Source of the DNA: Bacteroidota bacterium
GTDB taxonomy: Bacteria; Bacteroidota; Ignavibacteria; UBA10030; UBA8401
Length of the DNA stretch: 64,000 nt
Direction: 5' to 3'
Assembly: GCA_008933835.1 (NCBI GenBank)
Contig: WBUG01000002.1
Span: forward strand, 62,929-126,928
The translations under genes and the position numbers were made by a program. Below the pieces are notes generated by a model that was not told where the DNA came from, did not search any database, and worked only from the letters and a program-made list of their open reading frames with translations. Positions 1 to 37,858 of the stretch are shown one piece after another. How positions within the stretch are numbered: the first letter of the stretch is position 1; each line of letters begins with the position of its first letter.

Positions 1-1
1 G

Positions 2-1534
2 TCGTGCCACGGCTCCGCAGAGATGACGCAGGGGGTCGCCTCGAGCTTCATCCATGCGTACGAGCAGAGCGTCCATGCGAACGCCCTGAAGAACGGGAAC
101 GGGAAGGCGGCCAACTGCGTGGACTGCCACAGCAGTCATGATATGCAGAAGGGTTCGCACCCGGACTCGAAGGTGAACAAGAAGAACATCCCCGGCACCT
201 GCGCCCAGTGTCATGAAGGTGTCGTGAAGACGTACGAGACGAGCATCCACGGAAAAGCGTTCGCCGGCGGGAACACCGTGTCGCCGGTCTGCACGGACTG
301 TCACGGCGAGCATAAGATCCTCGGCACCAAGGACCCCGATTCCCCCGTCTCGAAGCTCCACGTCGCCGAAGAGGTCTGCGCCCCCTGCCACGCTTCGGTG
401 AAGATGTCCGAGAAGTTCGGGCTCCCCACCGGGAAGACGAACACGTTCAACGACAGCTTCCACGGTCTGGCCGTGAAGTCCGGAAGCAAGGAAGCGGCGA
501 ACTGCGCCAGCTGCCACGGCTACCACGATATCCTGCCGTCGTCCGACCCCGCCTCGCGCGTGAGCAAGTCGAACCTCGCGAAGACCTGCGGCACCTGTCA
601 TCCCGGCGCGGGGGAGAACTTCTCCGCCGGCGTCGTGCACGTCTCCACCAAGGCGGACAGTGAGGACGACCTCATCGCGTTCGTCTCGAACATCTACGTG
701 GTGCTCATCCTCGTCACCATCGGCGGCATGGCCGCGCACAACATCCTCGACTTCGTCCGGAAGTCAAAACGCCGGCTGCAGCACCGCCGCCACGGTCCCG
801 GCGAGGAGGAGGTCGGCCACAGTCTGTACGTCCGCATGACCCTCGGCGAACGTCTGCAGCACGGAGCGCTCGCCCTGAGCTTCATCACCCTGGTCGTCAC
901 CGGATTCATGCTCCGCTATCCGGACGCCTGGTGGGTGGTGGGGATCCGCTCTCTGAGCGAATCGGTGTTCGAGATCCGCGGCGTCATCCACCGCGTGGCC
1001 GCCGTCGTGATGGTCCTGGCCTCGCTGTACCACCTCTATTATATCTTCTTCGTCCCCCGCGGCAAGCAGCTCATCCGTGACCTTCTGCCCAAGGTGCAGG
1101 ACGCGTACGACGCCATCGGCGTGGCACGCTATAACCTCGGTCTTTCGAAGGAAAAGCCGCTGCTGGACCGCTTCAGTTACATCGAAAAGGCCGAATACTG
1201 GGCCCTGATCTGGGGGACCATCGTCATGGCCGTCACCGGCGTCATCCTCTGGTTCGACGTCACGTTCATCAATCTCATCGGCAAGCAGCTGTGGGACGTC
1301 TCCCGCGTCGTGCACTACTACGAGGCATGGCTCGCCACGCTCGCCATCATCGTCTGGCACTTCTACTTCATCATCTTCAATCCGGACGTCTATCCGATGA
1401 ACCTCGCCTGGCTCAAGGGGACCATCTCGGAAGAGGAGATGGCGGACGAACATCCGCTGGAACTCCGCCGCATCAAGGAGGAACAGCTCCGCCTCGAGGA
1501 AGAGGAGAAGAAGAAGAACGCCGACATCAACTGA
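2..1534 (+). CDS. 5'-partial fusion protein: periplasmic multiheme cytochrome c domain plus C-terminal FdnI/HydC-type membrane cytochrome b domain (CbcL-like inner-membrane quinol oxidoreductase)
   Basis: The reading frame is open from the window edge; upstream codons already read ..SCHG, so the gene starts before position 1. Six complete CxxCH motifs are visible: CVDCH, CAQCH, CTDCH, CAPCH, CASCH and CGTCH. About 4-5 His-containing transmembrane helices follow (LILVTIGGMAAHNILDF, LALSFITLVVTGFMLRY, AAVVMVLASLYHLYYIFF, IVMAVTGVILWF, LATLAIIVWHFYFIIF), typical of Ni/Fe-hydrogenase or formate dehydrogenase b-type cytochrome subunits. Confidence 0.8.
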   Translation, partial: SCHGSAEMTQGVASSFIHAYEQSVHANALKNGNGKAANCVDCHSSHDMQKGSHPDSKVNKKNIPGTCAQCHEGVVKTYETSIHGKAFAGGNTVSPVCTDCHGEHKILGTKDPDSPVSKLHVAEEVCAPCHASVKMSEKFGLPTGKTNTFNDSFHGLAVKSGSKEAANCASCHGYHDILPSSDPASRVSKSNLAKTCGTCHPGAGENFSAGVVHVSTKADSEDDLIAFVSNIYVVLILVTIGGMAAHNILDFVRKSKRRLQHRRHGPGEEEVGHSLYVRMTLGERLQHGALALSFITLVVTGFMLRYPDAWWVVGIRSLSESVFEIRGVIHRVAAVVMVLASLYHLYYIFFVPRGKQLIRDLLPKVQDAYDAIGVARYNLGLSKEKPLLDRFSYIEKAEYWALIWGTIVMAVTGVILWFDVTFINLIGKQLWDVSRVVHYYEAWLATLAIIVWHFYFIIFNPDVYPMNLAWLKGTISEEEMADEHPLELRRIKEEQLRLEEEEKKKNADIN

Positions 1535-1555
1535 GACCACCAAGCGGAGCAACGT

Positions 1556-3055
1556 ATGAAGGACCTGCGGTCACTGCTTCCCACGACGTTCTTCAATCCC
1601 GTCAGTTACCTCGGCGGTGCGGTATCCGTCGCCAGTTTCATCCTCATCCTGTTCCTCTTCACCGTGGAGATGCTCGGCGTGCCGATGCAGCCGTACGTCG
1701 GCATCATCACCTTCGTGGTGCTGCCGGGCATCATGCTCCTCGGCATCGCGGTCAGCCTGTACGGCATGCGGCGCGAGAAACGGCGCCGGCTCCGCACCGG
1801 TTCCGAGACCGCGGTGTTCCCCACGCTGGACCTGAACGACCCGGTGCAGCGCACGCGGTTCACCTTCGCTTCCATCCTCGTCTTCATCCTGCTGCTCGGC
1901 ACCGCGTTCGGCAGCTACCAGGTGTACCATTTCACCGAGTCGGTCACCTTCTGCGGTCAGATCTGCCATCAGGTGATGAAACCCGAGTTCGTCGCCTATT
2001 CCAACTCGCCGCACTCCCGCGTCACCTGCGCCGACTGTCACGTGGGGTCGGGTGCGGACTGGTACGTGAAGTCCAAGCTCTCCGGAGCGTACCAGATCTA
2101 CTCCGTCATCTTCAAGAAGTACTCGCAGCCCATCCCCACGCCGGTGCACAGCCTTCGGCCGGCGCAGGGGACGTGCGAACAGTGCCACTACCCGCAGCAT
2201 TTCCATAACGACATCCAGGTCAACAAGACGTACTACCTGAAGGACGAGGCGAACACGCCGTGGTCGGTCTCGCTGCTGATGAAGATCAGCGGCGGCCGGT
2301 CGGACTCCGGCCCCACCTCCGGCATCCACTGGCACGTCAACCGCGACCACGCCGTCACCTACACCGCCGTCGATTCGCAGCGGCAGAACATCCCCGTCGT
2401 CCGCGTCCGCTACCCCGATGCGAGCGAGGACGAGTTCGTGACCACGGATGCGTATGACGCTGCGGCGCTGGCAGCGGGCGAGACGCGCACCATGGACTGC
2501 ATCGACTGCCACAATCGGCCGACGCACATCTACCGTTCGCCGGAAGAGACCATCAACGCCGAGATGTCGCACGGCGCCATCGCTCCCACGCTCCCCTCGG
2601 TCCGCCTCACCGTCTCCGAAGCGCTCACGCAGGAGTACGCGGACGACGAGGCGGCGATGAAAGGCATCGCTTCGTACATCACCGACTTCTACCGCCTCCG
2701 CCATCCGGCGCTGTTCGCGTCACGGCGGACGGAGATCGACTCCGCCGTCAGCGTCGCGAAGCGCATCTATGAGCGGAACTTCTTCCCGTACATGCGCGTG
2801 AGCTGGAAACGGTACCCGAACAACATCGGCCACTTCAACAACCTCGGATGCTTCCGGTGCCACGACAACAAGCATGTGTCGAAGAAGACCGGGAAGGTGC
2901 TGTCGAACGACTGCAACACCTGTCATACCATCCTTTCGCAGGGGACGTCGCTCGCCTCGAACATCTCGCCGAAGGGGCTCGAGTTCCTCCATCCGGTCGA
3001 CATCGGCGATGCCTGGAAAACGATGAACTGCATCGACTGCCATACGGGACAATGA
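1556..3055 (+). CDS. membrane-anchored heptaheme cytochrome c (ImcH-like / NapC-NirT-related candidate quinol dehydrogenase)
   Basis: The N-terminus has 2-3 hydrophobic transmembrane segments. Seven heme motifs follow: CGQICH (CX3CH), CADCH, CEQCH, CIDCH, CFRCH, CNTCH and CIDCH. Length of about 499 aa and the heme count match the ImcH family. Confidence 0.7.
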   Translation: MKDLRSLLPTTFFNPVSYLGGAVSVASFILILFLFTVEMLGVPMQPYVGIITFVVLPGIMLLGIAVSLYGMRREKRRRLRTGSETAVFPTLDLNDPVQRTRFTFASILVFILLLGTAFGSYQVYHFTESVTFCGQICHQVMKPEFVAYSNSPHSRVTCADCHVGSGADWYVKSKLSGAYQIYSVIFKKYSQPIPTPVHSLRPAQGTCEQCHYPQHFHNDIQVNKTYYLKDEANTPWSVSLLMKISGGRSDSGPTSGIHWHVNRDHAVTYTAVDSQRQNIPVVRVRYPDASEDEFVTTDAYDAAALAAGETRTMDCIDCHNRPTHIYRSPEETINAEMSHGAIAPTLPSVRLTVSEALTQEYADDEAAMKGIASYITDFYRLRHPALFASRRTEIDSAVSVAKRIYERNFFPYMRVSWKRYPNNIGHFNNLGCFRCHDNKHVSKKTGKVLSNDCNTCHTILSQGTSLASNISPKGLEFLHPVDIGDAWKTMNCIDCHTGQ

Positions 3056-3235
3056 GGTCCGGTTCCTTCCCGACTTTGCAAAGGGGCCGATTTGGGTTTT
3101 CCTAATCGTAGGAAGCCGACCCCCGTTCTGATGCAAATTTCAACGGTTTTATGTTGGATTTTTCGGCACATAAATTGCCATAAAATGGGAGAGTTTCACT
3201 CTTTTCTTTCACACTTCACTTCAATGGAGACAGAC

Positions 3236-3748
3236 ATGAAAAAGCTTCTCTATCTTCTCTTCGCGGTCGTCATCGCGCTGCCGCTGGCCGCGCAGAACAA
3301 GTATGTCGGCGTGAAAGGTTGCGCCTGCCACAACATGCCGAAGCAGGGCAAGCAGGTGGACGTGTGGAAGAAGTCGGACCATGCGAAGGCGTTCGAGACC
3401 TTGAAGAGCGACAAGGCGGCGGAGATCGCGAAGAAGAACGGCATCGCCTCCGCGGCCGAAGCGAAGCAGTGTCTCGAGTGTCACTCCACCGGCGCCGGTG
3501 ATCCGGCCGAGAAGACCTTCGCCGCCGCCGACGGTGTGCAGTGCGAAGCGTGCCACGGTGCCGCCTCCGGATACAAGGCCATTCATAACAAGCCCGAGAA
3601 CAAAGAGAAGGCGGTCGCCGCCGGTCTGCTGAAGGCCGATGAGAAGACCTGCAAGCCGTGCCACGGCGCCAACAAGATGCACGACGCGAAACCGTTCGAC
3701 TACAAGAAAGCGTGGGAACAGATCAAGCATCCGGCACCGAAAGGCTGA
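3236..3748 (+). CDS. small secreted cytochrome c (3 canonical CxxCH plus one atypical CACH)
   Basis: An internal ATG at 3236 gives the signal peptide MKKLLYLLFAVVIALPLAAQ. Motifs are CLECH, CEACH, CKPCH and GCACH. The upstream in-frame extension of the track ORF lies in an AT-rich non-coding gap and is rejected. Confidence 0.75.
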   Translation: MKKLLYLLFAVVIALPLAAQNKYVGVKGCACHNMPKQGKQVDVWKKSDHAKAFETLKSDKAAEIAKKNGIASAAEAKQCLECHSTGAGDPAEKTFAAADGVQCEACHGAASGYKAIHNKPENKEKAVAAGLLKADEKTCKPCHGANKMHDAKPFDYKKAWEQIKHPAPKG

Positions 3749-3750
3749 GT

Positions 3751-5031
3751 ATGGAACGGACACTTCTGGCGGCGCTCGTGCTGCTGTCGATGACGGCGGA
3801 CGCGCAGTCGATCAACGGCCGGCTGACGACATCGTTCTACGGCTTTGAAGGCCGCGATGCCGCGCTGGCGAAGCAGACCTACCTCCGGGCGTACGAGAAC
3901 GTGTACCTGAACGCCTCCAGCGGTGATGTTTCATTCAATATGAACGCGATGGTCAGCAACGATTTCGGCTCCGACCTCGCGACCGACCCCGAACTCCGAA
4001 TCTCCTCCTTACTGGTGAAGGTGAGAAAGATTGGCGGCTTGGCGGACCTGTCCGTCGGCCGCCAATTCATTTTCGCCGGTGCCGGGTACGGTCTCATCGA
4101 CGGCGCGCAGACGGGACTCCGCTTCCTGGACGACCGGGTGAGCGTCACGCTGTACGGCGGAACGAACGTGGACCACACCCGCGACGTCCGCAAGCAGTGG
4201 ATCGGCAGCAACGGGATGTTCGGCGGCCAGGTCGTCTTCGCCCCCGTCGAGAACGGTTCGGTCGGTCTCAGCTATATGAACAAACGGCGGGAGCGCGCGC
4301 CGTACACCGCCGTCCGTGCGGACTCGCTCTTCAATCCCTACATCATCGTCGTCAACAGCACCCCGCTCGAAGAGGAGCTCGCCTCGGTCGATGCGGAGTA
4401 TGAGTTCGGCCACGCGGTGATGCTGCAGGCGAAGGCGGACTATGACGTCCACCATGCTGAGCTCTCCCGCATCCAGGCCTTCACCCGCGTGCACGCCATG
4501 GAAGGCCTCAGCGGAACGCTGGAGTACATCTTCCGCGAACCCCGCGTCGCCTACAACTCCATCTTCTCCGTCTTCAACACCAACAGCACGCAGGAGATCG
4601 AAGGGGGTCTCGAGTACCGTCACAGTCCCTTCTTTTTCCTCTTCGCCCGCTTCGCGGACGTGCAGTATGTGGACGACAACAGCCAGCGGCTGTCGGTGGG
4701 TGGGACGTACGAGTTCCTCTCCGCCGCGTACACCCAGAACTTCGGATACGCCGGCGAACTCAACGGCGTCTCCCTGCAGGCGGCCTATCCGCTGATGGAC
4801 CGTGTCATCACCCCCACGTGCGGGTTCGGCTACGCCTCCTATAAACATGCGAAAGACGACCCGTCCAGCACGGTCGTCAACCTGGCGGCCGGAGCGGTCT
4901 ACCGTCCCAGCAAGTACATCTCGGCGGACGTGCAGCTGCAGTGGATGCAGAATCCGCAGTTCGACAGCGACATGCGCGCCTTCGTCAAGTTCACCTATTG
5001 GTTCAACGATCGTTTGGGGTGGCTGGAATGA
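3751..5031 (+). CDS. outer-membrane beta-barrel protein (porin partner of a porin-cytochrome complex)
   Basis: An internal ATG at 3751 gives the signal peptide MERTLLAALVLLSMTADAQS. The protein is rich in alternating hydrophobic/Gly/Tyr beta-strand patterns and has an aromatic-rich C-terminus (FVKFTYWFNDRLGW). It starts 2 nt after the small cytochrome gene, and its stop overlaps the next cytochrome's start. Confidence 0.7.
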   Translation: MERTLLAALVLLSMTADAQSINGRLTTSFYGFEGRDAALAKQTYLRAYENVYLNASSGDVSFNMNAMVSNDFGSDLATDPELRISSLLVKVRKIGGLADLSVGRQFIFAGAGYGLIDGAQTGLRFLDDRVSVTLYGGTNVDHTRDVRKQWIGSNGMFGGQVVFAPVENGSVGLSYMNKRRERAPYTAVRADSLFNPYIIVVNSTPLEEELASVDAEYEFGHAVMLQAKADYDVHHAELSRIQAFTRVHAMEGLSGTLEYIFREPRVAYNSIFSVFNTNSTQEIEGGLEYRHSPFFFLFARFADVQYVDDNSQRLSVGGTYEFLSAAYTQNFGYAGELNGVSLQAAYPLMDRVITPTCGFGYASYKHAKDDPSSTVVNLAAGAVYRPSKYISADVQLQWMQNPQFDSDMRAFVKFTYWFNDRLGWLE

Positions 5032-6233
5032 AAAAGAACCTCACCATCGCCGCGGCCGCCGCCGTCCTCATCGGTCTGGTCCTCTTCGGACGCGGAACCG
5101 TCGTGGCGGACGATGCAGCGCCGGCGGACAAGACGCAGCTCATCAAGTTCTCCCATGCCAAGCACGCCGAGGCCGGTGCCGAATGCGCGTCCTGTCATAA
5201 AGCGGACCTCAGCGACAACTCCTCGGACCGCATGCTCCCCGGCCACGCCGAGTGCCAGTCCTGCCACGAGCAGGAAGTGAACGAGAATTGCTCCTTCTGC
5301 CACACCAATCCCGACGATCCGCAGGCCCTTCCCAATCCCGTCCGCTCCCTCTTCTTCAGCCATAAACAGCATGTCGGTATGGAGGGGGTGAAGTGCGAGA
5401 CGTGCCATCAGGGGATGGACAAAGCGGACTTCGCCGGTCATCAGAACCTTCCCGCCATGGCGACCTGCAATACGTGCCATAACGACGTGAAGGCGACGAA
5501 CCAGTGCGAAGCGTGCCACACGGACCTCTCGAACCTCCGTCCGGCGTCGCACAACGTTGCCAATTTCAAGCGCGAGCATGCGCGCGTCATGAGCCTCCGC
5601 ACGTTCGAAGCGAAGTGCCAGTCCTGCCACACCGAGCAGTCCTGCGCTGAGTGTCATGACGGCACCAATCTGACCGAACTGGCCCCCGGCGTGAAGAGCG
5701 GTCTGCTCTCGCCGCGGCACGCCGCCGGCGACAAGGCGGTCGCTCTGGCGGGCGAAGCGGTGCACGGCATGAACTACCGCTTCACGCACGGCATCGATGC
5801 CAAAGGCCGCGCGGCGGACTGCCAGACCTGCCACAGCAGCCAGCAGTTCTGCAGCGACTGCCACATGAACGGCTCCGCCGCCCTCGGCGGTGCGATGCCC
5901 ACCAGCCATGAGGCGCCCGGCTTCACCACCATCGGCGTCGGATCGGGCGGCGGCTCGCATGCGACCCTCGCGAAGCGCGACATCCAGCGCTGCATGACCT
6001 GTCACGACACGGAAGGGGGCGACCCCAACTGCATCACCTGCCATGCGGACTACGACGGCATCAAGGGGACCAATCCCCGGACGCACAAGAGCGGCTTCAT
6101 GAAGGATAACGAACACGGCGAATGGCACGACGATGCGAACGCGAACTGCTTCGTCTGCCATACGGACGCCAATGCCAAACCGAGCGGAAGACCGGGACAG
6201 GGATTCTGCGGATATTGCCATGGTGTGAAATGA
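5028..6233 (+). CDS. periplasmic 14-heme c-type cytochrome (MtrA/OmaB-like periplasmic conduit cytochrome)
   Basis: The ATG at 5028 overlaps the porin stop (ATGA). Signal peptide is MKKNLTIAAAAAVLIGLVLFG. There are 14 CxxCH motifs: CASCH, CQSCH, CSFCH, CETCH, CNTCH, CEACH, CQSCH, CAECH, CQTCH, CSDCH, CMTCH, CITCH, CFVCH and CGYCH. Confidence 0.85.
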   Translation: MKKNLTIAAAAAVLIGLVLFGRGTVVADDAAPADKTQLIKFSHAKHAEAGAECASCHKADLSDNSSDRMLPGHAECQSCHEQEVNENCSFCHTNPDDPQALPNPVRSLFFSHKQHVGMEGVKCETCHQGMDKADFAGHQNLPAMATCNTCHNDVKATNQCEACHTDLSNLRPASHNVANFKREHARVMSLRTFEAKCQSCHTEQSCAECHDGTNLTELAPGVKSGLLSPRHAAGDKAVALAGEAVHGMNYRFTHGIDAKGRAADCQTCHSSQQFCSDCHMNGSAALGGAMPTSHEAPGFTTIGVGSGGGSHATLAKRDIQRCMTCHDTEGGDPNCITCHADYDGIKGTNPRTHKSGFMKDNEHGEWHDDANANCFVCHTDANAKPSGRPGQGFCGYCHGVK

Positions 6234-7054
6234 TGAACACGACCCTTCGTTTCGGGACCCTGGCGCTCGTCGCCGCGCTGCTCCTCGGCGGATGCGCCGA
6301 GACCAAAGAGGACAAGGTGCCCACCACGCCGGAAGTGTCGGTGCACGGCGCCGGTTTCGCCGACATTTCTTCGTCGAACTTCCACGCGAAGTACATCCAG
6401 GGGAAGAACTTCGACCTCTCGCTGTGCAAGACCTGCCACGGTCCCGATTTCTCCGGCGGAACGTCCGGGAAGTCGTGCAACACCTGCCACAGCAAGCCCG
6501 GCGGACCGGAGAACTGCACCGTCTGCCACGGCAGCGTGAATGCCGCACCGCCGTTCGATCTGGCGGGCAACGTATCGCCCGCATCGCGCGCCGTCGGAGC
6601 GCACCAGGTCCATCTGCTCGGCGGCCTCGTCGGCGCCAAGGTCACATGCACCGAGTGCCATGTCGTCCCTGCGGCCCTCACTGCCGCAGGACACATCGAC
6701 AATTCAGCCCATGCAGAGGTGCGGTTCGACCCTTCGTCGGTCTTCTATAAGGCGGACGCCGTGTTCAGCGGCAGCGGTACGACGGCCACCTGTTCCAACA
6801 CCTACTGCCACGGCAACTTCCCCGGCGGTAACGGCAACGTGACCATGACCTGGAGCGATACCAATCCGGACGCTGCCGCCTGCGGTACCTGCCATGGCGA
6901 CGTCACCAAGGCGACCTTCGCCGAGAAGGCGTTCCCGAAGAGCGGTCATCCTGCTATCGGCAGCATGACGTGCAACCAATGTCATTCGCGCACGGTGAAC
7001 AGCCTTGCGCAGATCATCGATCCGTCGAAGCATGTGAACGGCGTGGTCGATTAA
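6230..7054 (+). CDS. lipoprotein multiheme cytochrome c (7 heme motifs; putative outer-membrane/surface cytochrome)
   Basis: The ATGATG start overlaps the upstream stop. A lipobox (LLLGGC) is present. Motifs are CKTCH, CNTCH, CTVCH, CTECH, CSNTYCH (CX4CH), CGTCH and CNQCH. Confidence 0.8.
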   Translation: MMNTTLRFGTLALVAALLLGGCAETKEDKVPTTPEVSVHGAGFADISSSNFHAKYIQGKNFDLSLCKTCHGPDFSGGTSGKSCNTCHSKPGGPENCTVCHGSVNAAPPFDLAGNVSPASRAVGAHQVHLLGGLVGAKVTCTECHVVPAALTAAGHIDNSAHAEVRFDPSSVFYKADAVFSGSGTTATCSNTYCHGNFPGGNGNVTMTWSDTNPDAAACGTCHGDVTKATFAEKAFPKSGHPAIGSMTCNQCHSRTVNSLAQIIDPSKHVNGVVD

Positions 7055-7133
7055 CGAAAGTGACTCATCCTTCACCGGGAGTCATTTTGCACCAAGAACC
7101 AATCACTTCATCACTGAAAGGAGCGTTAAGACA

Positions 7134-8354
7134 GTGAAACATCTCCTGACTGTTCTGATCGCACTGTTGTTCCTTGCTCTCCAGGCCTGCGAAGGACCCG
7201 AAGGTCCCGCCGGCGCGCAGGGTCCTGCTGGTAAGGACGGCGCGAACGGACAGAACGCCGGCTTCGTGTACTTCGAAGGCTTCAAAGACAGCCTCCGCTG
7301 CGCGACCTGCCATACTCCCGATGCCGATACGGCGCTGTTCATGGCCGCGAAGACGTTGGAATACGAATCCGCCGGTCACATGGAAGGCACTTCATGGGCG
7401 CGCGGTATCAACAGCGGCGATTGCGCCAGCTGCCACATCACTGAAGGGTATCTCGAATCGGCACGCGGCAATTTCGCGTCACAGGCGACCAAGCTCTACT
7501 CGCATGGTTCGCAGCCCGGTTGCTTCACCTGCCATTCGCCGCATAAGGCCGGTTCGTTTGCGGTCCGCAAGACCGATGCGATCAAGGTGAAATCCTTCGT
7601 TGCCGGCGCTGCCGACCTGCAGTTCAACGTCGGTTCGTCCAACACCTGCGTCACCTGCCATCGTACGCGTGAGACTAGCCCGATGACGAACAGCGTTTTC
7701 GTGAACGGCGTCAGCGGCAACCCCGATCCGACGAAGACGGCAGCGACCGACTCCATCGAGATCAAGACCAGCCGCTTCTATCCTCACTATGGCGTCCAGG
7801 GCCAGATTCTGACCGGAAAGGGAGGATTTGAGTTCACCGGATATACCTACCCGTCATCGTATCACACGAATCTGGCGGCGGCAAAGAACATCCAGTGCTC
7901 CGACTGCCATATGGCGAATCCGACCGTCATCGTGAACGGTACACCGGTCGCCGGCGGACACACCCTGAAGATCGGGTACAGCTCCATTTCCACCGACTCC
8001 GCGAACAATATGGTGAACGTCGCCGGTTGCCGGACGACGGGATGCCATCCGAGCGCCTTCACCGCCAACACGGTGACCGCGACGGTGTTCGCCGCGTTCA
8101 AGCAGTCCGGTCAGAAAGCGCTGCAGGATTCCATGGCCACGCTGAAGTCCATGCTTGTCTCGAAAGGCTGGCTCGATCCGGCGACGGACCTTGCCAAGCT
8201 GACCGGCGGCAAACTGGTGATCAAGCCCGCCTATAAGGCCGGTGCATTGTTCAACTACTTCTTCTTGGAACATGAAGGAAGCCACGGCATGCACAACATG
8301 CAGTATGCTCAGGCGTTGCTGAATGCTTCGTTGGCGGAACTCCGCAAACCGTAA
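7134..8354 (+). CDS. lipoprotein multiheme cytochrome c with N-terminal collagen-like Gly-X-Y stalk (6 heme motifs)
   Basis: GTG start at 7134 with the RBS aaaggag about 10 nt upstream. Lipobox is LALQAC. A (GPE)(GPA)(GAQ)(GPA)(GKD)(GAN)(GQN) stretch follows. Heme motifs are CATCH, CASCH, CFTCH, CVTCH, CSDCH and CRTTGCH (CX4CH). Confidence 0.8.
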   Translation: MKHLLTVLIALLFLALQACEGPEGPAGAQGPAGKDGANGQNAGFVYFEGFKDSLRCATCHTPDADTALFMAAKTLEYESAGHMEGTSWARGINSGDCASCHITEGYLESARGNFASQATKLYSHGSQPGCFTCHSPHKAGSFAVRKTDAIKVKSFVAGAADLQFNVGSSNTCVTCHRTRETSPMTNSVFVNGVSGNPDPTKTAATDSIEIKTSRFYPHYGVQGQILTGKGGFEFTGYTYPSSYHTNLAAAKNIQCSDCHMANPTVIVNGTPVAGGHTLKIGYSSISTDSANNMVNVAGCRTTGCHPSAFTANTVTATVFAAFKQSGQKALQDSMATLKSMLVSKGWLDPATDLAKLTGGKLVIKPAYKAGALFNYFFLEHEGSHGMHNMQYAQALLNASLAELRKP

Positions 8355-8402
8355 TTCCCTCCTCCTACCTTACAGAACGAAAGCACTACCTCCTCATACC
8401 AG

Positions 8403-8433
8403 CCGACCCGCACCCCGCGGGTCGGTTTTTTTT
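8403..8433 (+). terminator. Rho-independent terminator after the cytochrome cluster
   Basis: A ccgacccgc / gcgggtcgg 9-bp stem with loop acccc is followed by 8 T residues. Confidence 0.7.
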
Positions 8434-8504
8434 AAAATGCCCGTACCGTTGAGACCGGCACACGCTGTCGTTGAATTTCGTGCGGTTATTCTGTACCATG
8501 ATGC

Positions 8505-9647
8505 ATGTCCTTCATCCGTCCGCTCGCGCTCCTTTTGGCCGCCGTTCTGTCATCACCGGCGCAGGAACGGATCCTGACGGTGACCGTGTCGATGCCCGAT
8601 TCTCTTGCGAAACCCTCGCTGACGCTGTTCGTCGCCGGCAACAGACCGGAGTTCGGCAACTGGCATCCCGCGACTGCGGCGCTCGAGCGGGTGAACGACA
8701 CCGTGTGGCGCCGCTCCTGGACCTTCCCGCAGGGGAGCGTGCTGCAGTTCAAGATCACCGCCGGTTCGTGGGACGATGAGGCCGTGTACCGTGCGGACGC
8801 CGTTCCGGGCAACACCATCATTCATCTCGATTCCGACACCACCGTGCAGCTCCGACCCATCTTTTGGAAGTCGCGCCTGAAACTGGCGAAGCCCGAGCGG
8901 GCCATCGTCGGCACCGTGCGGTACCATCGCGGTCTGACCGGCGCAGGACTCGCGCATGCGCGGGACCTCATCGTGTGGCTCCCGCCGTCGTATGAAACAG
9001 CCTCCGCGAAGCGATATCCGGTGCTGTATGTGCATGACGGACAGAACATCTTCGACCCGTCGACGTCGTTCACCGGACACGACTGGAGGATGGACGAAAC
9101 GGCGGACAGTCTCATCCGCATGGGGAGGATGGAAGAGGTCATCATCGTGGGCATCGGCAATACGGCGGACCGGCTGCCGGAGTATTCCGACTCGCCGCTG
9201 GGGGACGCGTACCGGGAATTCGTCATCTCGACCGTGAAACCCCTCATTGATTCCACATACCGTACGAAACCGGACCGCCGCCATACGTCGGTGATGGGAT
9301 CGTCACTGGGAGGGTTGTGCTCGTTCCTGTTCGCATGGAAACGGCCGGACATCTTCGGGGCTGCGGCGGGTCTTTCCACCTCGTTCTGGTACGACGACGA
9401 ACGGACGCTGAAGGAGATCCGCGGACATTCGGGGGCGAAGAAAGCGGTGCGCTGGTATCTGGACTGCGGCGGGAGGGAGAAGGAACTGCTCAGCGGTTAT
9501 CGCCGTATGACGGAGATATTGAAGAAGCAGGGATACGAGAAGGGGAAGGACCTCGAGTACCACCTCGATTCGAACGGCGTCCACAACGAACTCTCATGGT
9601 CCCGCCGCACCTGGCGTCCGCTCTTATTCCTGTACGGGAAGAAGTGA
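8505..9647 (+). CDS. secreted esterase (esterase D / enterochelin-esterase-like alpha/beta hydrolase) with N-terminal CBM20-like carbohydrate-binding domain
   Basis: Signal peptide is MSFIRPLALLLAAVLSSPAQ. The N-terminal region matches a CBM20 pattern (LFVAGNRPEFGNWHP..W..LQFKITAGSW). The catalytic part has YPVLYVHDGQNIFD and a GSSLGG serine motif. Confidence 0.7.
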   Translation: MSFIRPLALLLAAVLSSPAQERILTVTVSMPDSLAKPSLTLFVAGNRPEFGNWHPATAALERVNDTVWRRSWTFPQGSVLQFKITAGSWDDEAVYRADAVPGNTIIHLDSDTTVQLRPIFWKSRLKLAKPERAIVGTVRYHRGLTGAGLAHARDLIVWLPPSYETASAKRYPVLYVHDGQNIFDPSTSFTGHDWRMDETADSLIRMGRMEEVIIVGIGNTADRLPEYSDSPLGDAYREFVISTVKPLIDSTYRTKPDRRHTSVMGSSLGGLCSFLFAWKRPDIFGAAAGLSTSFWYDDERTLKEIRGHSGAKKAVRWYLDCGGREKELLSGYRRMTEILKKQGYEKGKDLEYHLDSNGVHNELSWSRRTWRPLLFLYGKK

Positions 9648-9668
9648 ACGGCGTTCGCCGCGTTCACT
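9645..9668. terminator. candidate bidirectional hairpin between convergent esterase and purE
   Basis: The imperfect palindrome gtgaacg-N10-cgttcac overlaps both stop codons. There is no clean T-run, so it is weak. Confidence 0.3.
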
Positions 9669-10161
9669 TCTTCGTGCTGTGATGCTTCCGGTTCTTTCCC
9701 TTCGACTCCCGCTCCATCCTCTTCTTGTACGCGCTCATCTTCCTGACCAGCGATGCATCACGGACGGAGAGGATCTGTACCGCCAGCAGTCCGGCGTTCT
9801 TCCCGCCGCCGATGGCGACCGCCGCCACCGGCACGCCGCCCGGCATCTGCGCGATGGAGAGGAGGGAGTCGAGCCCGTCCAGCGAGCGGGTCTTGATGGG
9901 GACGCCGATGACCGGCAGCGGGGTGTGTGCGGCGGACATGCCGGGGAGATGTGCCGCGCCGCCGGCGCCGGCGATGAGCACCTTCAATCCGCGTCCCGCT
10001 GCGCTCCGGGCATAGGAGGCCATCAATCCCGGTGTGCGGTGTGCGGAGGTGATCTTCATCTCGAACGGAACGCCGAACTCGGTCAGCACGGCGGCCGCCT
10101 CCTGCATGGTCGGAAGGTCGCTGTCGCTTCCCATGATGATGCCGACGAGCGGTCGTTTCAT
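9664..10161 (-). CDS. purE: N5-carboxyaminoimidazole ribonucleotide mutase
   Basis: Classic PurE sequence: [38 protein letters not shown]...[16 protein letters not shown]. Confidence 0.92.
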
Positions 10162-13658: not shown

Positions 13659-16049
13659 GTGAAAACAACCATCGTGACAATCCTGGCGCTCTGTCTCACC
13701 GTACTCGGGGCCGCACAGGAGAACAGTGCGAAACAGACGAAGTACACCATCCTCGGTATCTCGGTCTCGGGCAACGAACTGGCCGAACCGGCCGCCATCA
13801 TCGGCAATTCGGGACTGAAGGTGGGGGACGAACTCACCATCCCCGGAGAGCAGACCCGCACCGCCATCCAGCGTCTTTGGAACCTCAAGATCTTCGCGAA
13901 CATCGAGGTCGAGGCGGAGAGCTTCGTCGGCGACGGCGTCTTCCTCCTCATCAAGGTGGAGGAATACCCGCGCCTGGAGAAGGTGATCTACGACGGGAAC
14001 GACGAACTGGACGCCGAGGACCTGGACAAGAAGATCAACGTCACGAAGGGACAGATCATCTCGCCGCAGGAGGTCAACAAGATCATCAAGACCATCAAGA
14101 AGGCGTACGAGGAGGAGGGATACCTGCAGGCATCGGTCACACCGGAGCTGGTGCGGTCCGAAGAGGAGGGGACGAAGGGTCGCAAGGTGCTGAAGCTCGC
14201 CATCGACGAAGGGAGCGACGCCCGCATCGCGGAGATCCTCTTCTACGGCAATGCGGCGTACGATGACGGCGACCTGAAGGACGAACTGCCGGACCTCCAT
14301 GAGAACCGGTGGTGGAAGTTCTGGCGCACCGGCAAGCTCGAACGGAAGAAGTACGACGAGGCGAAGAAGGCGCTGGTGGACTTCTACAAGAAGAACGGGT
14401 ACCGGGACGCGGAGCTGGTGACGGATTCCGTGGTGTTCAGCGCGGACAAGGAGAGCATCATCCTGAAGTTCGTCCTCTACGAAGGGCCGCAGTACAAGGT
14501 GGGGGCGGTGACGTGGGAGGGGGTCACGGTGTTCAAGACCGAACAGCTCAACCAGCGGCTCGGATTCACGCCGGGGGACGTCTACAACGTGGAGAAGTTC
14601 GAACGCAACCTGCGCGGGAACGAGGACCAGACCGACGTCGCCTCGCTCTACCTCGACAACGGCTATCTTACCGTCTCGCTCGAGCCCGAAGAGGTGAAGG
14701 TGGGTCCGGACAGTCTCAACATCGTCATCCGGGTCCGCGAGCGCAACCAGTTCAAGATCGGCGCGGTGGACATCCGCGGCAACACCAAGACGCAGGAGCG
14801 GGTCATCCGGCGGGAGCTCTATGTGCGTCCCGGCGACTACTTCAGCCGTTCCAACATCATCCGCAGCATCCGTCAGCTCTCGGTGCTGAACTACTTCAAT
14901 CCGGAAAAGATCAAACCGGACACGAAGTTCGTGGACGACAAGACGGTGGACGTCGTCTTCGAGGTGGAGGAGAAGTCCAGCGATACGTTCAACGCCTCCG
15001 TCGGGTACAGCGGAGCGTTCGGCGCCACCGGAGCGCTCGGCCTCACCTTCAACAACTTCGACATCACCGAGCCCTTCTCGGGCGGCGGCGGACAGGTGCT
15101 GAACTTCGACTGGCAGTTCGGCGAAGGGAGCCGGTACCGCACCTTCTCCATCTCCTTCCGCGAGCCGTGGGTGTACGACACGCCCACCTCGTTCGGGTTC
15201 AGCCTCTACGACACGAAGCAGGACTATTACATCAAGATCCAGCAGACCGGCGGCACCATCAGCGTCGGACGGCGGTTCAAGTGGCCGGACGACTACTTCA
15301 GCGCCACCTGGACCTTCCGTTTCCAGCAGAACAACGTCGAAGACATCTACGGTTCGAGCTACTACAGCAGCCTGTACCGCACCGGGAAGAGCAGTCAGTT
15401 CAGCATCTCGCAGGTCATCCAGCGGAACAGCGTGAACAGCCCCCTCTTCCCGACGCAGGGGAGCAACATTTCGCTCATGACCGAACTGGCCGGCGCGCCG
15501 CTCCTTCCGGGCGATGCCCACTATAATAAGCACCTCTTCAACGCCGACTTCTACGTGCCGGTGCTGAACAGCGGCCGGCTCGCGCTGTATTACGGCACAC
15601 AGTACGGCGCCATCTTCGGTTTCACGGACGCGTACAAAGACATCCCGTACATCGAGACCTTCTATATGGGCGGGACGGGCCTGGGGCAGATCGCGACCAC
15701 GCCGCTCCGGGGGTATGCGGACCGGAGCATCGCCCCCGTCGATTACGACGGCCGGTATCTGCCCGGAACGGTGATGGCGAAGCACACCGCCGAACTGCGG
15801 TTCAATGTTGCACTTAATCCGATTCCGATTTACTTTCTGGCATTCGCCGAGGCGGGAAACGTCTGGCAGAACATGACGAAGGCCGAGTTCTTCGACCTGA
15901 AACGCTCCGCGGGTCTCGGGGCGCGGCTGCTCATCAACCCCATCGGACTGCTCGGTTTCGACTACGGGTACGGCTACGACAACGCCGATCCCGCCGAGCG
16001 GTCGCCCTCCGGCTGGCAGTTCCACTTCCAGTTCGGCCGGGGATTCTGA
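13659..16049 (+). CDS. bamA: outer membrane protein assembly factor BamA
   Basis: 796 aa with a signal peptide, repeated POTRA-like segments and an Omp85 barrel ending FHFQFGRGF. GTG start. Confidence 0.9.
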   Translation: MKTTIVTILALCLTVLGAAQENSAKQTKYTILGISVSGNELAEPAAIIGNSGLKVGDELTIPGEQTRTAIQRLWNLKIFANIEVEAESFVGDGVFLLIKVEEYPRLEKVIYDGNDELDAEDLDKKINVTKGQIISPQEVNKIIKTIKKAYEEEGYLQASVTPELVRSEEEGTKGRKVLKLAIDEGSDARIAEILFYGNAAYDDGDLKDELPDLHENRWWKFWRTGKLERKKYDEAKKALVDFYKKNGYRDAELVTDSVVFSADKESIILKFVLYEGPQYKVGAVTWEGVTVFKTEQLNQRLGFTPGDVYNVEKFERNLRGNEDQTDVASLYLDNGYLTVSLEPEEVKVGPDSLNIVIRVRERNQFKIGAVDIRGNTKTQERVIRRELYVRPGDYFSRSNIIRSIRQLSVLNYFNPEKIKPDTKFVDDKTVDVVFEVEEKSSDTFNASVGYSGAFGATGALGLTFNNFDITEPFSGGGGQVLNFDWQFGEGSRYRTFSISFREPWVYDTPTSFGFSLYDTKQDYYIKIQQTGGTISVGRRFKWPDDYFSATWTFRFQQNNVEDIYGSSYYSSLYRTGKSSQFSISQVIQRNSVNSPLFPTQGSNISLMTELAGAPLLPGDAHYNKHLFNADFYVPVLNSGRLALYYGTQYGAIFGFTDAYKDIPYIETFYMGGTGLGQIATTPLRGYADRSIAPVDYDGRYLPGTVMAKHTAELRFNVALNPIPIYFLAFAEAGNVWQNMTKAEFFDLKRSAGLGARLLINPIGLLGFDYGYGYDNADPAERSPSGWQFHFQFGRGF

Positions 16050-35798: not shown

Positions 35799-37858
35799 TG
35801 AAACGGTCCATCGTCATATCGCTTCTGCTGATCGCTGCGGCGGGACCGGTCTCCGCTCAAAGCGACACCCTCATCTCGTCGCCGTCGCTCTCGTTCAGCC
35901 GCGGCAAACTGTGGCACAGCGTCTTCAACGGGAAGAGCGGTCCGAACTTCGCCAACTGGGGACGGCGCGGCATCGGACTGGACTGGCCCGGATACGACGA
36001 GACGTGGGTGAACGAGGACATCGGCGGACCGTCGTCGTACCTCGTGACGGGGGGATTCTTCATCGGGGCGAAGAAACAGGCGGACACCATCATCGCCGTG
36101 GAGGACTGGTCCATCTACGGCTCGACCATCTCGTCCGAAGTGAACTCGAAGTACCGTCTGCGGAGCCACCGCCACCTCTATCCCAACGGCACCAACTGGG
36201 GGATGAAGACGAAGGCGAAGGCGGGCGAGGAGGTCATCGAGACCGTGTGGGAGTACAATCCCGGTTTCAGTTCGCAGGTGGACCAGAACCAGCTCTTCCC
36301 CGTGCTTCCGGTCCGCGTCACGCGGCGGGCGCATCAGTGGAACGGTTCCACGCGCGATGAGAACTACGTCCTCTACGAGTACATCATCAAGAACGTCTCG
36401 AACGAGTTCCCGCAGCTCAACGGCCATACGGTGGACACCCTCTTCGGACTCCGCATCGTGATGAACTACGCCCTGCAGGCGAACTCCCGTGCATGGAGCG
36501 TCCTCTTCCCGCAGCTCTCACCGGGTTCCCGGAACCTCGTTTTCGACACCGACAGCACCCAGCGGCTCACCCGCGCACGCGCCGGCGATTACAAGGAGGA
36601 GGCCGGTGACGAATCGTACATGTTCGCGTCGACGCAGGGCTACCGTGTGGAAGGGGATCCCACCGGCGAGTTCCTTGCGCCGGCCATCGTGGGGGTGAAG
36701 CTGCTCTACGCGACGCCGGAGGCGCGGTACAACGAACCCTCCCTGGTGAGCCGGTACGGATGGTCCGCCGCCAGCAACTCGGTGGACCTGAGCGGACCCG
36801 TGACCAACATCGGTTCCCTCGAAGCGCGGTACAATTTCCTCGCCGACATCGCCGCCGCGAACGCGTTCGTCGCGAACTATGCGGACCCGACGTACGCCGG
36901 ACGCTCGCGCGTCTGGTCCATGATGCAGCTCGGACCGTGGAACCTCGCTCCCGGCGACTCCGTCCGAATCGGCATCGCCGAGATCGTGGACGGTCCTTCC
37001 GATTCGCTCTGGTTCGACGAGAAGAAGCGGAGCCTCATCTCGTCCGAGGGAGCGACGCAGTTCAGCCGGTCCGTTCAGTTCGCGCAGCAGACGTGGCAGT
37101 TCAATCTGGACCATCCCGATCCGCCGGTCGCGCCGCCGTTCACGGTGGAGTACATCCGGAACCGCGAACGGTTCGCCGCCTCTGTCATCGAATGGAGCAG
37201 CGCATCGGAATCGCTGCCGGACCCCGACGACGGCACGCTCGACCTCGCCGGATACCGGGTGTACCGCTCGTTCCATCTGCCGACCGGACCCTGGAAGCGC
37301 ATCGCCGACATCCGGAAAGGTGACCCCGCCTTCTATGATGCGGCGGGGGGGAAGTACGCGTTCGTCGATTCTACCGGAGATATCGGGACGAACTATTACT
37401 ATGCCCTCACCGCGTACGACACCGGAAAGGCCTCCTGGCCGGTGAGTCCGTCCACCATCTTCCAGCCCGGCGGCACGGGAGCGCGCAGAGTGCCGCCGCT
37501 CGAATCGTCCATCTTCGCCAACCGGCTGAGCCGTCCGTTCCGTATGACCATCGCGCCGGCGAAATCACAGAACGACGTCCTGGTGGTCCCGAATCCGTTC
37601 GTCATCTCCCGCGGCGTGTCGCAGGTCGGTTCGGGGGACGACATCCTCTTCACCAACGTCCCGAACCCCTGCACCATCCGTATCTACACCGTCCGCGGCG
37701 ATCTGGTGCGCACCATCGAGGTGCCGGAGGGAACGGGAGGGATCGTTTCGTGGAACCAGCAGACCGGATACGGTCAGTTCGCTGAGAGCGGCATCTACAT
37801 CTTCCACGTCGATTCACCCGCCGGCACGAAGGTCGGCAAGTTCGCCATCATCCGATGA
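35798..37858 (+). CDS. secreted hypothetical protein with C-terminal T9SS/FlgD-Ig-like sorting-type domain
   Basis: Signal peptide MKRSIVISLLLIAAAGPVSAQ. C-terminus LVVPNPFVISRG...NPCTIRIYTVRGDLVRTIEV...GIYIFHVDSPAGTKVGKFAIIR. The start overlaps the TonB-dependent receptor stop. Confidence 0.55.
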   Translation: MKRSIVISLLLIAAAGPVSAQSDTLISSPSLSFSRGKLWHSVFNGKSGPNFANWGRRGIGLDWPGYDETWVNEDIGGPSSYLVTGGFFIGAKKQADTIIAVEDWSIYGSTISSEVNSKYRLRSHRHLYPNGTNWGMKTKAKAGEEVIETVWEYNPGFSSQVDQNQLFPVLPVRVTRRAHQWNGSTRDENYVLYEYIIKNVSNEFPQLNGHTVDTLFGLRIVMNYALQANSRAWSVLFPQLSPGSRNLVFDTDSTQRLTRARAGDYKEEAGDESYMFASTQGYRVEGDPTGEFLAPAIVGVKLLYATPEARYNEPSLVSRYGWSAASNSVDLSGPVTNIGSLEARYNFLADIAAANAFVANYADPTYAGRSRVWSMMQLGPWNLAPGDSVRIGIAEIVDGPSDSLWFDEKKRSLISSEGATQFSRSVQFAQQTWQFNLDHPDPPVAPPFTVEYIRNRERFAASVIEWSSASESLPDPDDGTLDLAGYRVYRSFHLPTGPWKRIADIRKGDPAFYDAAGGKYAFVDSTGDIGTNYYYALTAYDTGKASWPVSPSTIFQPGGTGARRVPPLESSIFANRLSRPFRMTIAPAKSQNDVLVVPNPFVISRGVSQVGSGDDILFTNVPNPCTIRIYTVRGDLVRTIEVPEGTGGIVSWNQQTGYGQFAESGIYIFHVDSPAGTKVGKFAIIR

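Follow-up and report, generated by a model that had tools for sequence, protein, structure and literature searches.

A putative porin-cytochrome conduit of the Geobacter Pcc type in an uncultured bacterium of the Ignavibacteria lineage

Three adjacent genes in the stretch of DNA analysed here (64,000 nucleotides, hereafter the window), which encode an outer-membrane beta-barrel, a periplasmic 14-haem c-type cytochrome and a lipoprotein cytochrome, very probably specify a Geobacter-type Pcc conduit such as occurs in Ignavibacteria and related bacteria of the FCB group. A preliminary description of the sequence had read the porin and its cytochrome as an electron conduit across the outer membrane, and this core reading is supported by a predicted barrel of 22 strands, the co-conservation of the pair, an invariant number of 14 haems and the precedent of Ignavibacterium album. 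The window belongs to an uncultured lineage of high GC content (63%), and the features of the cluster are collected in Table 1.

Table 1. Features of the cytochrome cluster, in window coordinates
Feature	Position	Strand	Properties and proposed role
CbcL-like inner-membrane gene, 3' part	1..1534	+	truncated by window start; multihaem c domain fused to cytochrome b (PF01292)
NapC/NirT-type, putative ImcH-like inner-membrane cytochrome gene	1556..3055	+	499 aa, N-terminal membrane helices, 6 CXXCH + 1 CX3CH
Small periplasmic c554-like cytochrome gene	3236..3748	+	170 aa, signal peptide, 3 CXXCH
Outer-membrane beta-barrel gene	3751..5031	+	426 aa, signal peptide, ~22 predicted transmembrane strands, plug-less; proposed porin-like sheath of conduit
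Periplasmic 14-haem c-type cytochrome gene	5028..6233	+	401 aa; proposed trans-barrel haem wire
Outer-membrane lipoprotein cytochrome gene	6230..7054	+	274 aa, lipobox LLGGC, 6 CXXCH + 1 CX4CH; proposed extracellular terminus
Second lipoprotein cytochrome gene	7134..8354	+	406 aa, 5 CXXCH + 1 CX4CH
Intrinsic-terminator-like hairpin	8401..8437	+	11-bp stem, 8 G-C pairs, T-run; closes cytochrome operon

Organization and conservation of the gene cluster

The CbcL-like gene, the frame of which is open from base 2, retains six complete CXXCH motifs and the tail of a seventh, and its product matches Ni_hydr_CYTB of Pfam (E=8.5e-16) together with several multihaem domains. Its orthologue in one related locus (L001) encodes 739 amino acids with a signal peptide, and a CbcL-like gene precedes the barrel in most of the related loci and also in L058 and L062. 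The product of the second gene matches Cytochrom_NNT of Pfam (E=6e-12) and NrfH of NCBIfam (E=1e-13, under the NrfH cut-off); the name ImcH-like, suggested by its architecture and by the ImcH homologues reported in Melioribacter (PMC4251993, PMC6295460), is used here for this putative inner-membrane cytochrome, the gene for which is kept in about 40 of the 57 related loci. The small cytochrome encoded next is assigned to Cytochrome_C554 of Pfam (E=2.7e-16), and its gene, which ends 2 nt before the start of the barrel gene, immediately precedes the barrel gene in most of the related loci too. In this protein the first CXXCH motif is replaced by a clade-specific CXCH.

Downstream of the 14-haem cytochrome, the product of the third gene of the conduit begins with MMNTTLRFGTLALVAALLLGGC, a lipoprotein signal with its lipobox cysteine, and matches the Geobacter-type CxxxxCH/CxxCH domain of NCBIfam TIGR01904 (42 bits, cut-off 27) and Pfam PF09698. 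A lipoprotein cytochrome of this kind, ranging from 258 to 871 amino acids, is found at this position in every related locus that is long enough to show the gene. In the second lipoprotein cytochrome a collagen-like G-X-Y run follows directly after the lipobox cysteine, and this run is kept in 21 of 21 orthologues. The hairpin listed in Table 1 is the only strong terminator-like site on the + strand within positions 1-9800, and its presence as a single downstream terminator, together with the tight or overlapping junctions, indicates that the genes form one operon, a layout that favours production of sheath and wire in matching amounts. A scan for sigma-70 promoters gave results at chance level, the consensus being probably unsuited to the host lineage, and no Rfam family or tRNA was detected in the window.

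The stop codon of the barrel gene (TGA, 5029-5031) overlaps the start codon of the cytochrome gene (ATG, 5028-5030) by 4 nt in the sequence GGA-ATGA-AAA, and the cytochrome stop (TGA, 6231-6233) in turn overlaps the ATG of the third gene at 6230-6232 in the sequence ATGATG, an overlap that shrinks to 1 nt should translation actually begin at the second ATG (6233). Both overlaps are as the preliminary description reported them; the weight that it placed on the ATGA junction as a telling feature is not borne out. Overlaps of 1 nt or 4 nt occur at no fewer than five other same-strand junctions of the window (35798, 37855-37858, 38793-38796, 39518 and 47429-47432) and, because they are so common, the ATGA overlap by itself is not beyond chance. 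The junction also varies among the 57 related loci, in which the distance from barrel to cytochrome ranges from -10 to +50 nt; in 19 of them the genes overlap, in most cases by a single nucleotide, and an overlap of 4 nt is seen in only two. Translational coupling of the two genes is best regarded as plausible. Unlike the overlap, the adjacency of the genes, their order and the invariant haem count are far beyond chance.

In fact, the order barrel, 14-haem cytochrome, lipoprotein cytochrome is held in all 57 related loci as far as the contigs extend, so that the co-conservation proposed earlier as a check on the pair is observed and includes the downstream lipoprotein cytochrome. We may ask whether an unrelated outer-membrane protein simply came to lie inside a cytochrome operon, and the one point that could be raised in favour of such a coincidence is the lack of an annotated family for the barrel; nevertheless, the barrel precedes the cytochrome gene in 57 of 57 loci, from several lineages and down to 30% barrel identity, and with synteny conserved to this degree a coincidental adjacency is effectively refuted and barely conceivable. 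The loci with the conserved pair belong to Ignavibacteria, Melioribacteraceae, one MAG of Rhodothermaceae and one MAG labelled Acidobacteriota, and the relatives include MAGs from groundwater, lakes and soils that represent uncultured Ignavibacteria and other bacteria labelled Bacteroidota. Identity to MAGs labelled Melioribacteraceae or Ignavibacteriaceae and to the cultured Rosettibacter firmus is about 30-37% for the barrel and about 40-48% for the cytochrome; R. firmus carries the same cluster, beside genes for cytochrome c maturation and haem synthesis. A homologue search that started from an orthologue of Melioribacteraceae lists the cultured R. firmus and strain 4301-Me among its best 120 matches; IALB_1838 of I. 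album is absent from these 120, and the IALB proteins do not figure among the other matches listed. In an HMM search of 1.84 billion proteins, the matches listed are only relatives of about the same length, and the ten weakest among them include MAGs of Calditrichia and Cloacimonadota.

The predicted barrel and the 14-haem cytochrome

The barrel reading frame opens with the ATG at 3751, and its N-terminus, MERTLLAALVLLSMTADA/QS, reads as a signal peptide. No match to the protein was found in Pfam or NCBIfam, and a search of PDB sequences with the barrel profile gave nothing meaningful; its family comprises 476 clusters at 50% identity. According to the AlphaFold model (pLDDT 84) the protein is a barrel of 22 strands with no plug, which agrees with the earlier suggestion that at least 20 strands would be consistent with a cytochrome-threading porin and departs from the 8-12 strands or the FadL/OmpA-like fold that had been set against it. 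The best superpositions of the model are on the 22-strand barrels of TonB receptors, which normally enclose a protein plug, and among the solved structures searched the sole porin-cytochrome complex to appear was that of Shewanella Mtr (PDB 6R2Q). The most conserved element of the barrel is a non-strand motif, PRxAYNSIFSVF (residues 264-275), for which AlphaFold finds no placement in the absence of a partner.

The cytochrome gene, with its start at 5028-5030, encodes an N-terminal signal-like segment followed by exactly 14 CXXCH motifs, the number that had been claimed, and zero atypical haem motifs, and 14 haem motifs are likewise counted in 51 of 52 complete orthologues. Across the orthologues no variation is seen in the 14 motifs, in 11 further histidines or in M144, and there is almost none at H73, H367 and M358; with 11 invariant and two nearly invariant histidines in addition to M144 and M358, the distal ligands suffice for 14 six-coordinate haems of the electron-transfer type. 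Modules of the c7 and c3 types were detected by searches of Pfam, NCBIfam and PDB sequences, the PDB sequence matches being limited to c7 and ActA-type modules. The protein uses 28.6 residues per haem, a value below the approximately 33 quoted for MtrA-like wires (PMC5566968). Its structural model reached a pLDDT of 57, and Foldseek returned only ActA of alternative complex III; because this pLDDT is too low, nothing said here on the length or shape of the cytochrome rests on the model.

These properties also bear on the question of whether the barrel could be an ordinary solute channel, admitting a metal in soluble or chelated form or an oxyanion of a metalloid, as in the proposal made for ExtI of Geobacter, and feeding periplasmic cytochrome reductases while the 14-haem protein stays outside the pore. 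We consider this quite improbable. Specific porins align over only about 260 of the approximately 405 mature barrel residues, compared with 340-351 for the 22-strand barrels, and the model has neither a constriction loop nor a plug, its connecting loops being mostly very short. Likewise, the invariant haem count and ligand set of the cytochrome are typical of a wire rather than of an enzyme. Furthermore, a lipoprotein cytochrome that presumably faces outward is always encoded adjacent to the pair, and such a neighbour calls for an electrical connection across the membrane and not for a solute pore.

Relationship to known porin-cytochrome systems

The cluster matches the Geobacter-type Pcc arrangement and specifically that of IALB_1837-1840 of I. 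album JCM 16511, the two being compared by architecture and description. Three of the elements by which a Geobacter-type Pcc is defined (PMC4245776) are present, namely a small porin-like barrel, an adjacent periplasmic multihaem cytochrome and an adjacent lipoprotein multihaem cytochrome. IALB_1837-1840 were classed as a Pcc cluster by Shi, Fredrickson and Zachara in 2014, with IALB_1839 described as porin-like, IALB_1838 as a 400-aa protein with 14 haems, IALB_1837 as a cytochrome of the outer membrane that carries an atypical motif and IALB_1840 as a periplasmic cytochrome (PMC4245776). The four-gene layout found here matches the one given by the locus-tag order of I. album, a likeness by architecture alone, and it shares with that subtype the cytochrome of about 400 residues (401 amino acids and 14 motifs here, 400 and 14 there), the porin-like gene, the outer-membrane cytochrome with an atypical motif (CX4CH here, CXnCH in I. 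album) and the extra periplasmic cytochrome. Both belong to the same broad lineage, the relatives of the present locus including MAGs labelled Ignavibacteriaceae and Melioribacteraceae and the cultured R. firmus, and Pcc clusters of Ignavibacteria are also known from MAGs of bioanodes and hot springs (PMC7399161, PMC6137239). In contrast to the I. album cluster, a second lipoprotein cytochrome, tethered by the collagen-like run, and an ImcH-like gene are present here.

In Geobacter sulfurreducens the OmbB-OmaB-OmcB complex, with which the second Pcc complex OmbC-OmaC-OmcC is grouped for this comparison, is encoded in the same order of porin-like protein, periplasmic cytochrome and outer-membrane lipoprotein cytochrome (PMC4589669). 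Consequently, the gene order that the preliminary description called inverted is indeed opposite to that of mtrA-mtrB, but it is the normal order of ombB-omaB-omcB and no inversion has to be invoked. With the Geobacter systems the cluster shares a barrel far below MtrB in size, a surface cytochrome that varies and in which atypical haem motifs may occur (PMC4245776), and the proposed mechanism. The haem numbers differ, with 8 in OmaB and 12 in OmcB against 14 and 7 in the present proteins, and no OrfR-type regulator gene is found in the visible part of the cluster. For the I. album counterparts themselves, the relationship to every Geobacter group has been described as no more than distant (PMC4245776).

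The label MtrAB/PioAB-like, also given earlier, has to be abandoned, and membership of the MtrAB/MtoAB/PioAB family is rejected on barrel family, cytochrome family and gene order: the barrel gives no Pfam match to MtrB_PioB, the 14-haem protein gives no match to the DmsE/MtrA decahaem family (TIGR03508 of NCBIfam) at E<=0.1, and the barrel gene comes first. The likeness to MtrCAB of Shewanella and to MtoAB/PioAB is one of functional logic, that is a barrel sheathing a multihaem wire, a lipoprotein cytochrome as cap and some 20 haems in total. It does not extend to the number of strands (22 in the model, 26 in Mtr), the size of the barrel (426 amino acids against approximately 650-700) or the cytochrome, which is built of c7/c3-type modules resembling ActA of alternative complex III. 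A fused porin-cytochrome of the Cyc2 type is rejected as well, given that the barrel protein contains neither CXXCH nor CXnCH. The PCC3 and PCC4 clusters of Fe(II) oxidisers, found mostly in Proteobacteria, similarly combine in one cluster a porin, a periplasmic multihaem cytochrome, in some cases an extracellular one, and an inner-membrane redox protein, and for their function, as here, genomics is the only source of evidence (He et al. 2017, PMC5566968). However, the cytochromes of PCC3 are far richer in haem (medians of 21 and 34) and contain low-complexity repeats, and the inner-membrane component of PCC3/PCC4 is a protein of five helices and about 300 amino acids, unlike the CbcL-like and ImcH-like cytochromes of the present cluster (PMC5566968).

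A more far-reaching hypothesis is that the FCB-group conduit constitutes a structurally distinct third type of porin-cytochrome system, evolved independently of Mtr and of the Geobacter Pcc, in which a plug-less 22-strand barrel without annotated relatives would grip, through PRxAYNSIFSVF, an invariant 14-haem c7/ActA-like wire that crosses the membrane and reaches well into the periplasm. We regard this as possible, if doubtful.

Proposed electron route and significance

Based on these comparisons, we infer that the cluster functions as an electron conduit. Quinol would be oxidised by the CbcL-like and ImcH-like cytochromes of the inner membrane, and the small c554-like cytochrome may carry the electrons across the periplasm. 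The plug-less 22-strand barrel would be embedded in the outer membrane and house the 14-haem cytochrome, which, once exported to the periplasm, is expected to lie within the barrel as an insulated haem wire; such threading is proposed by analogy with MtrAB (PDB 6R2Q) and with the biochemistry of the Geobacter Pcc. The lipoprotein cytochrome, with its seven haem motifs, would cap the wire at the cell surface, and wire and cap together would make a chain of about 21 haems, compared with 20 in MtrCAB. The second, collagen-tethered lipoprotein cytochrome could then extend the path outside the cell.

Electrons most probably flow outward through the conduit, which would allow the cell to respire insoluble Fe(III) or Mn(IV), humics or electrodes. 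In principle, a porin-cytochrome conduit can work in reverse, and proteins of the CbcL/MtoC type have been proposed to act both ways (PMC6295460); the same conduit could run inward, as in PioAB/MtoAB, and feed the quinone pool with electrons supplied by a cathode, Fe(II) or a syntrophic partner. Relatives do occur among MAGs of groundwater, lakes and soils, habitats that offer Fe(II). We nevertheless hold inward flow to be unlikely: Mtr-type clusters linked to Fe(II) oxidation often contain no mtrC or other gene for a surface cytochrome (PMC4245776), whereas two lipoprotein cytochromes are encoded here, proteins of the ImcH type are tied to the reduction of high-potential acceptors (PMC4251993), and the cultured Melioribacter roseus, of the class Ignavibacteria, reduces Fe(III) (PMC6137239, PMC6295460). 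The multi-omics paper on M. roseus makes no mention of multiheme, porin, heme-binding or outer membrane.

Clusters of this kind have been recognised in genomes since 2013-2014, and the present one leaves the current picture unchanged. By means of porin-cytochrome conduits Gram-negative bacteria can respire minerals and electrodes, and the conduit of the Ignavibacteria type emerges as a large and coherent module that is strictly conserved, and its spread supports the view that these abundant heterotrophs join in the redox cycling of iron and humics. The module is present in cultured strains (Rosettibacter, Melioribacteraceae), hence it is open to experiment, and it offers a defined target for structural work.

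Conservation of the barrel and cytochrome gene pair

[quoted passage not shown] The barrel stop and the cytochrome start share ATGA, and the cytochrome stop overlaps the start (ATGATG) of the first lipoprotein cytochrome gene. Scanning a single genome for each species yielded 57 loci with the barrel gene, and in all 57 the 14-haem gene comes directly after it, as expected if the pair is co-conserved, at a spacing of -10 to +50 nt and with a 4-nt overlap in two. Of the tight coupling regarded as a hallmark of such complexes, it is thus the close adjacency that is conserved, but not ATGA itself, which alone is unremarkable; overlaps of 1 nt and 4 nt are found at at least five further junctions elsewhere in the window. 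Nevertheless, the two genes may be translationally coupled.

Features of the plus-strand unit around the barrel and cytochrome genes
Feature	Position	Strand	Description
CbcL-like gene	1-1534	+	multihaem c domain fused to PF01292 cytochrome b domain; cut by window start
ImcH-like gene	1556-3055	+	NapC/NirT-type membrane cytochrome; 6 CXXCH and 1 CX3CH
Small c554-like periplasmic cytochrome	3236-3748	+	ends 2 nt before barrel start
Putative conduit (next three genes)	3751-7054	+	
Barrel	3751-5031	+	ATG to TGA; 426 aa; no haem motif; cleavable signal peptide (SMTADA/QS)
14-haem cytochrome	5028-6233	+	ATG to TGA; 401 aa; exactly 14 CXXCH
First lipoprotein cytochrome	6230-7054	+	274 aa; N-terminal lipoprotein signal (LLGGC); 6 CXXCH and 1 CX4CH
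Second lipoprotein cytochrome	7134-8354	+	406 aa
Terminator	8401-8437	+	strong hairpin

The true start of the CbcL-like gene is not the ATG at 23 proposed by the ORF finder, since the first bases of the window already encode the end of a haem motif (...SCHG); its orthologues comprise 739-815 aa (739 aa in related locus L001). No further multihaem genes were found in the remaining 55 kb of the window, where the genes seem by eye to be housekeeping genes (purEK, uppS, bamA, skp, lpx genes, uvrA and others). In the c554-like cytochrome the first haem motif (residues 29-32) is CXCH (CACH) instead of CXXCH. About 27 close relatives share the one-residue-short motif (CACH, CVCH, CNCH or CTCH), which is therefore not a sequencing error; more distant clades have four motifs, with CXXCH, and no c-type CXCH site turned up in a literature search. 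The second lipoprotein cytochrome carries, directly after the lipobox cysteine (residues ~20-42), a collagen-like G-X-Y run of seven triplets, GPEGPAGAQGPAGKDGANGQN, kept in 21/21 orthologues with about 5-9 triplets and weakly matched by Pfam Collagen (E=0.032), which might tether this surface cytochrome in an extended form or serve as its trimerisation stalk.

The MAGs with barrel loci are labelled Ignavibacteriales, Ignavibacteriaceae, Melioribacteraceae, Rhodothermaceae and, once, 'Acidobacteriota'; the frequent bin names 'Chitinophagaceae' and 'Synechococcus' are evidently not to be relied on. The cluster also occurs in a closed metagenomic genome (3.36 Mb) and in a cultured species, Rosettibacter firmus (GCA_036860695.1), with genes for cytochrome c maturation and haem synthesis after it in the latter. 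Over their full lengths the barrels of R. firmus and the window align at 29% identity (E 3e-70), and the 14-haem cytochromes share 43% identity. In two Melioribacteraceae-type genomes (loci L058, 10285-13209, and L062, 8339-13200) a cytochrome c assembly gene (PF01578) and haem synthesis genes (glutamyl-tRNA reductase, porphobilinogen deaminase, HEM4 and URO-D family matches) come directly after the cluster; the window has instead an ORF (8505-9647) and, by eye, apparent purE and purK.

Barrel fold and haem ligation

The barrel matched no Pfam or NCBIfam model and, by sequence, no solved structure, even with a 55-sequence profile. It has many homologues, none with a name beyond 'hypothetical', in MAGs bearing the labels Bacteroidota, Ignavibacteriales or Ignavibacteriae. 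At E<=1e-3 the barrel HMM matched 476 clusters in a search of 1.84 billion representative proteins, with 400-450 aa in nearly all full-length matches; among the weakest matches listed, the named sequences came only from Calditrichia and Cloacimonadota MAGs. From the alignment AlphaFold gave a confident model (pLDDT 84, pTM 0.71), which displays 22 long antiparallel strands, mostly connected by very short segments, a short hairpin within a loop and no plug domain, rather than the 8-12 strands or FadL/OmpA-like fold named beforehand as arguing against a porin-cytochrome complex. Conservation in the family is highest over 12 residues, PRVAYNSIFSVF (residues 264-275, window 4540-4575). They lie outside the strands, within some 17 residues left at pLDDT <50, and are a candidate site at which a partner protein, the cytochrome, might make contact.

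Predicted signal peptides end in A-Q, Q being the first mature residue, in the barrel (3751-3810; Q19, invariant across the barrel family), the small cytochrome (3236-3300) and a BamA recognized by eye (13659-13725). Such an end is typical of exported proteins in the Bacteroidota group. The window has 63% G+C, but this feature fits an origin in the FCB group.

The 14-haem cytochrome consists of c7/c3-type modules (Pfam, NCBIfam), and its sequence relatives in the PDB are confined to c7 cytochromes and ActA, a subunit of alternative complex III. Across 52 aligned orthologues, with identities as low as 45%, all 14 CXXCH motifs, 11 further histidines and M144 are invariant, and H73, H367 and M358 nearly so, hence distal ligands suffice for 14 six-coordinate haems, the predicted signature of an electron-transfer wire and not of an enzyme. 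Exactly 14 motifs are present in 51 of the 52 complete orthologues, the exception being a shortened ORF (350 aa, 11 motifs). The protein has 28.6 residues per haem, fewer than MtrA-type wires, with roughly 33 (PMC5566968). Its AlphaFold model is poor (pLDDT 57), and a fold search with it was consequently uninformative.

The size of the barrel, the conserved pairing and the invariance of haems and ligands support the porin-cytochrome interpretation put forward previously. That the barrel serves solely as a solute channel is very improbable, considering its size, its lack of a constriction, the invariant haem and ligand set of the 14-haem cytochrome and an obligatory partner that is a surface lipoprotein cytochrome.

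Relationship to known porin-cytochrome clusters

The assignment as MtrAB/PioAB-like did not hold: an MtrB_PioB barrel, an MtrA/DmsE decahaem cytochrome (no NCBIfam match for the 14-haem protein) and the corresponding gene order were all looked for and none was found. Likewise, the order is not inverted, since porin, periplasmic cytochrome and lipoprotein cytochrome follow each other as in Geobacter ombB-omaB-omcB (PMC4589669). The likeness to this porin-cytochrome gene cluster (Pcc) is one of gene order. The same anatomy is found in the pcc cluster of Ignavibacterium album (Shi et al. 2014; PMC4245776), with the porin-like IALB_1839, the cytochrome IALB_1838 (400 aa, 14 haems), IALB_1837, an outer-membrane cytochrome carrying an atypical motif, and the associated periplasmic cytochrome IALB_1840; IALB_1839 and IALB_1838 are only distant relatives of all Geobacter groups (PMC4245776). 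It is by architecture and lineage that the window cluster is tied to that of I. album. OmbB-like clusters were later reported from metagenomes of Ignavibacteria, Melioribacter and Caldithrix (PMC7399161, PMC6137239), a spread in agreement with the loci found here. Accordingly, the cluster should be refiled as a Geobacter/Ignavibacteria-type Pcc of normal order.

A lipoprotein-type cytochrome gene follows the 14-haem gene in every locus extending far enough, and is highly variable (258 to 871 aa, 5 to 18 motifs), matching the extreme diversity published for Pcc outer-membrane cytochromes (PMC4245776). In two related MAG loci the downstream lipoprotein cytochrome is enlarged (L051, 10496-12565, 689 aa, 14 CXXCH; L057, 10526-13141, 871 aa, 18 CXXCH) by tandem repeats of a module of which the window protein has a single copy; the putative conduit thus has a modular surface end of variable length.

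A putative electron conduit

The best-supported reading is that the barrel and cytochromes form a trans-outer-membrane electron conduit. Quinol would be oxidised at the inner membrane and electrons would cross the periplasm to the 14-haem wire, which would thread the 22-strand barrel and pass them to the lipoprotein cytochromes at the surface; wire and first lipoprotein cytochrome would together provide a chain of about 21 haems. We favor outward flow because of the two surface cytochromes, the ImcH-type link, a protein type associated with high-potential acceptor reduction (PMC4251993), and Fe(III) reduction by Melioribacter (PMC6137239, PMC6295460); the same observations argue against a conduit running inward, which we consider unlikely.

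Judged by architecture and lineage, the putative conduit is a new member of the Geobacter/Ignavibacteria-type Pcc, a kind already described from genomes and with a putative function; that it evolved independently, as a third structural type of conduit, is conceivable, though doubtful. What is added here is a confident 22-strand barrel model, the strict invariance of 14 haems and their ligands, a conserved barrel motif unplaced in the model, the size and spread of the barrel family and the full operon context.
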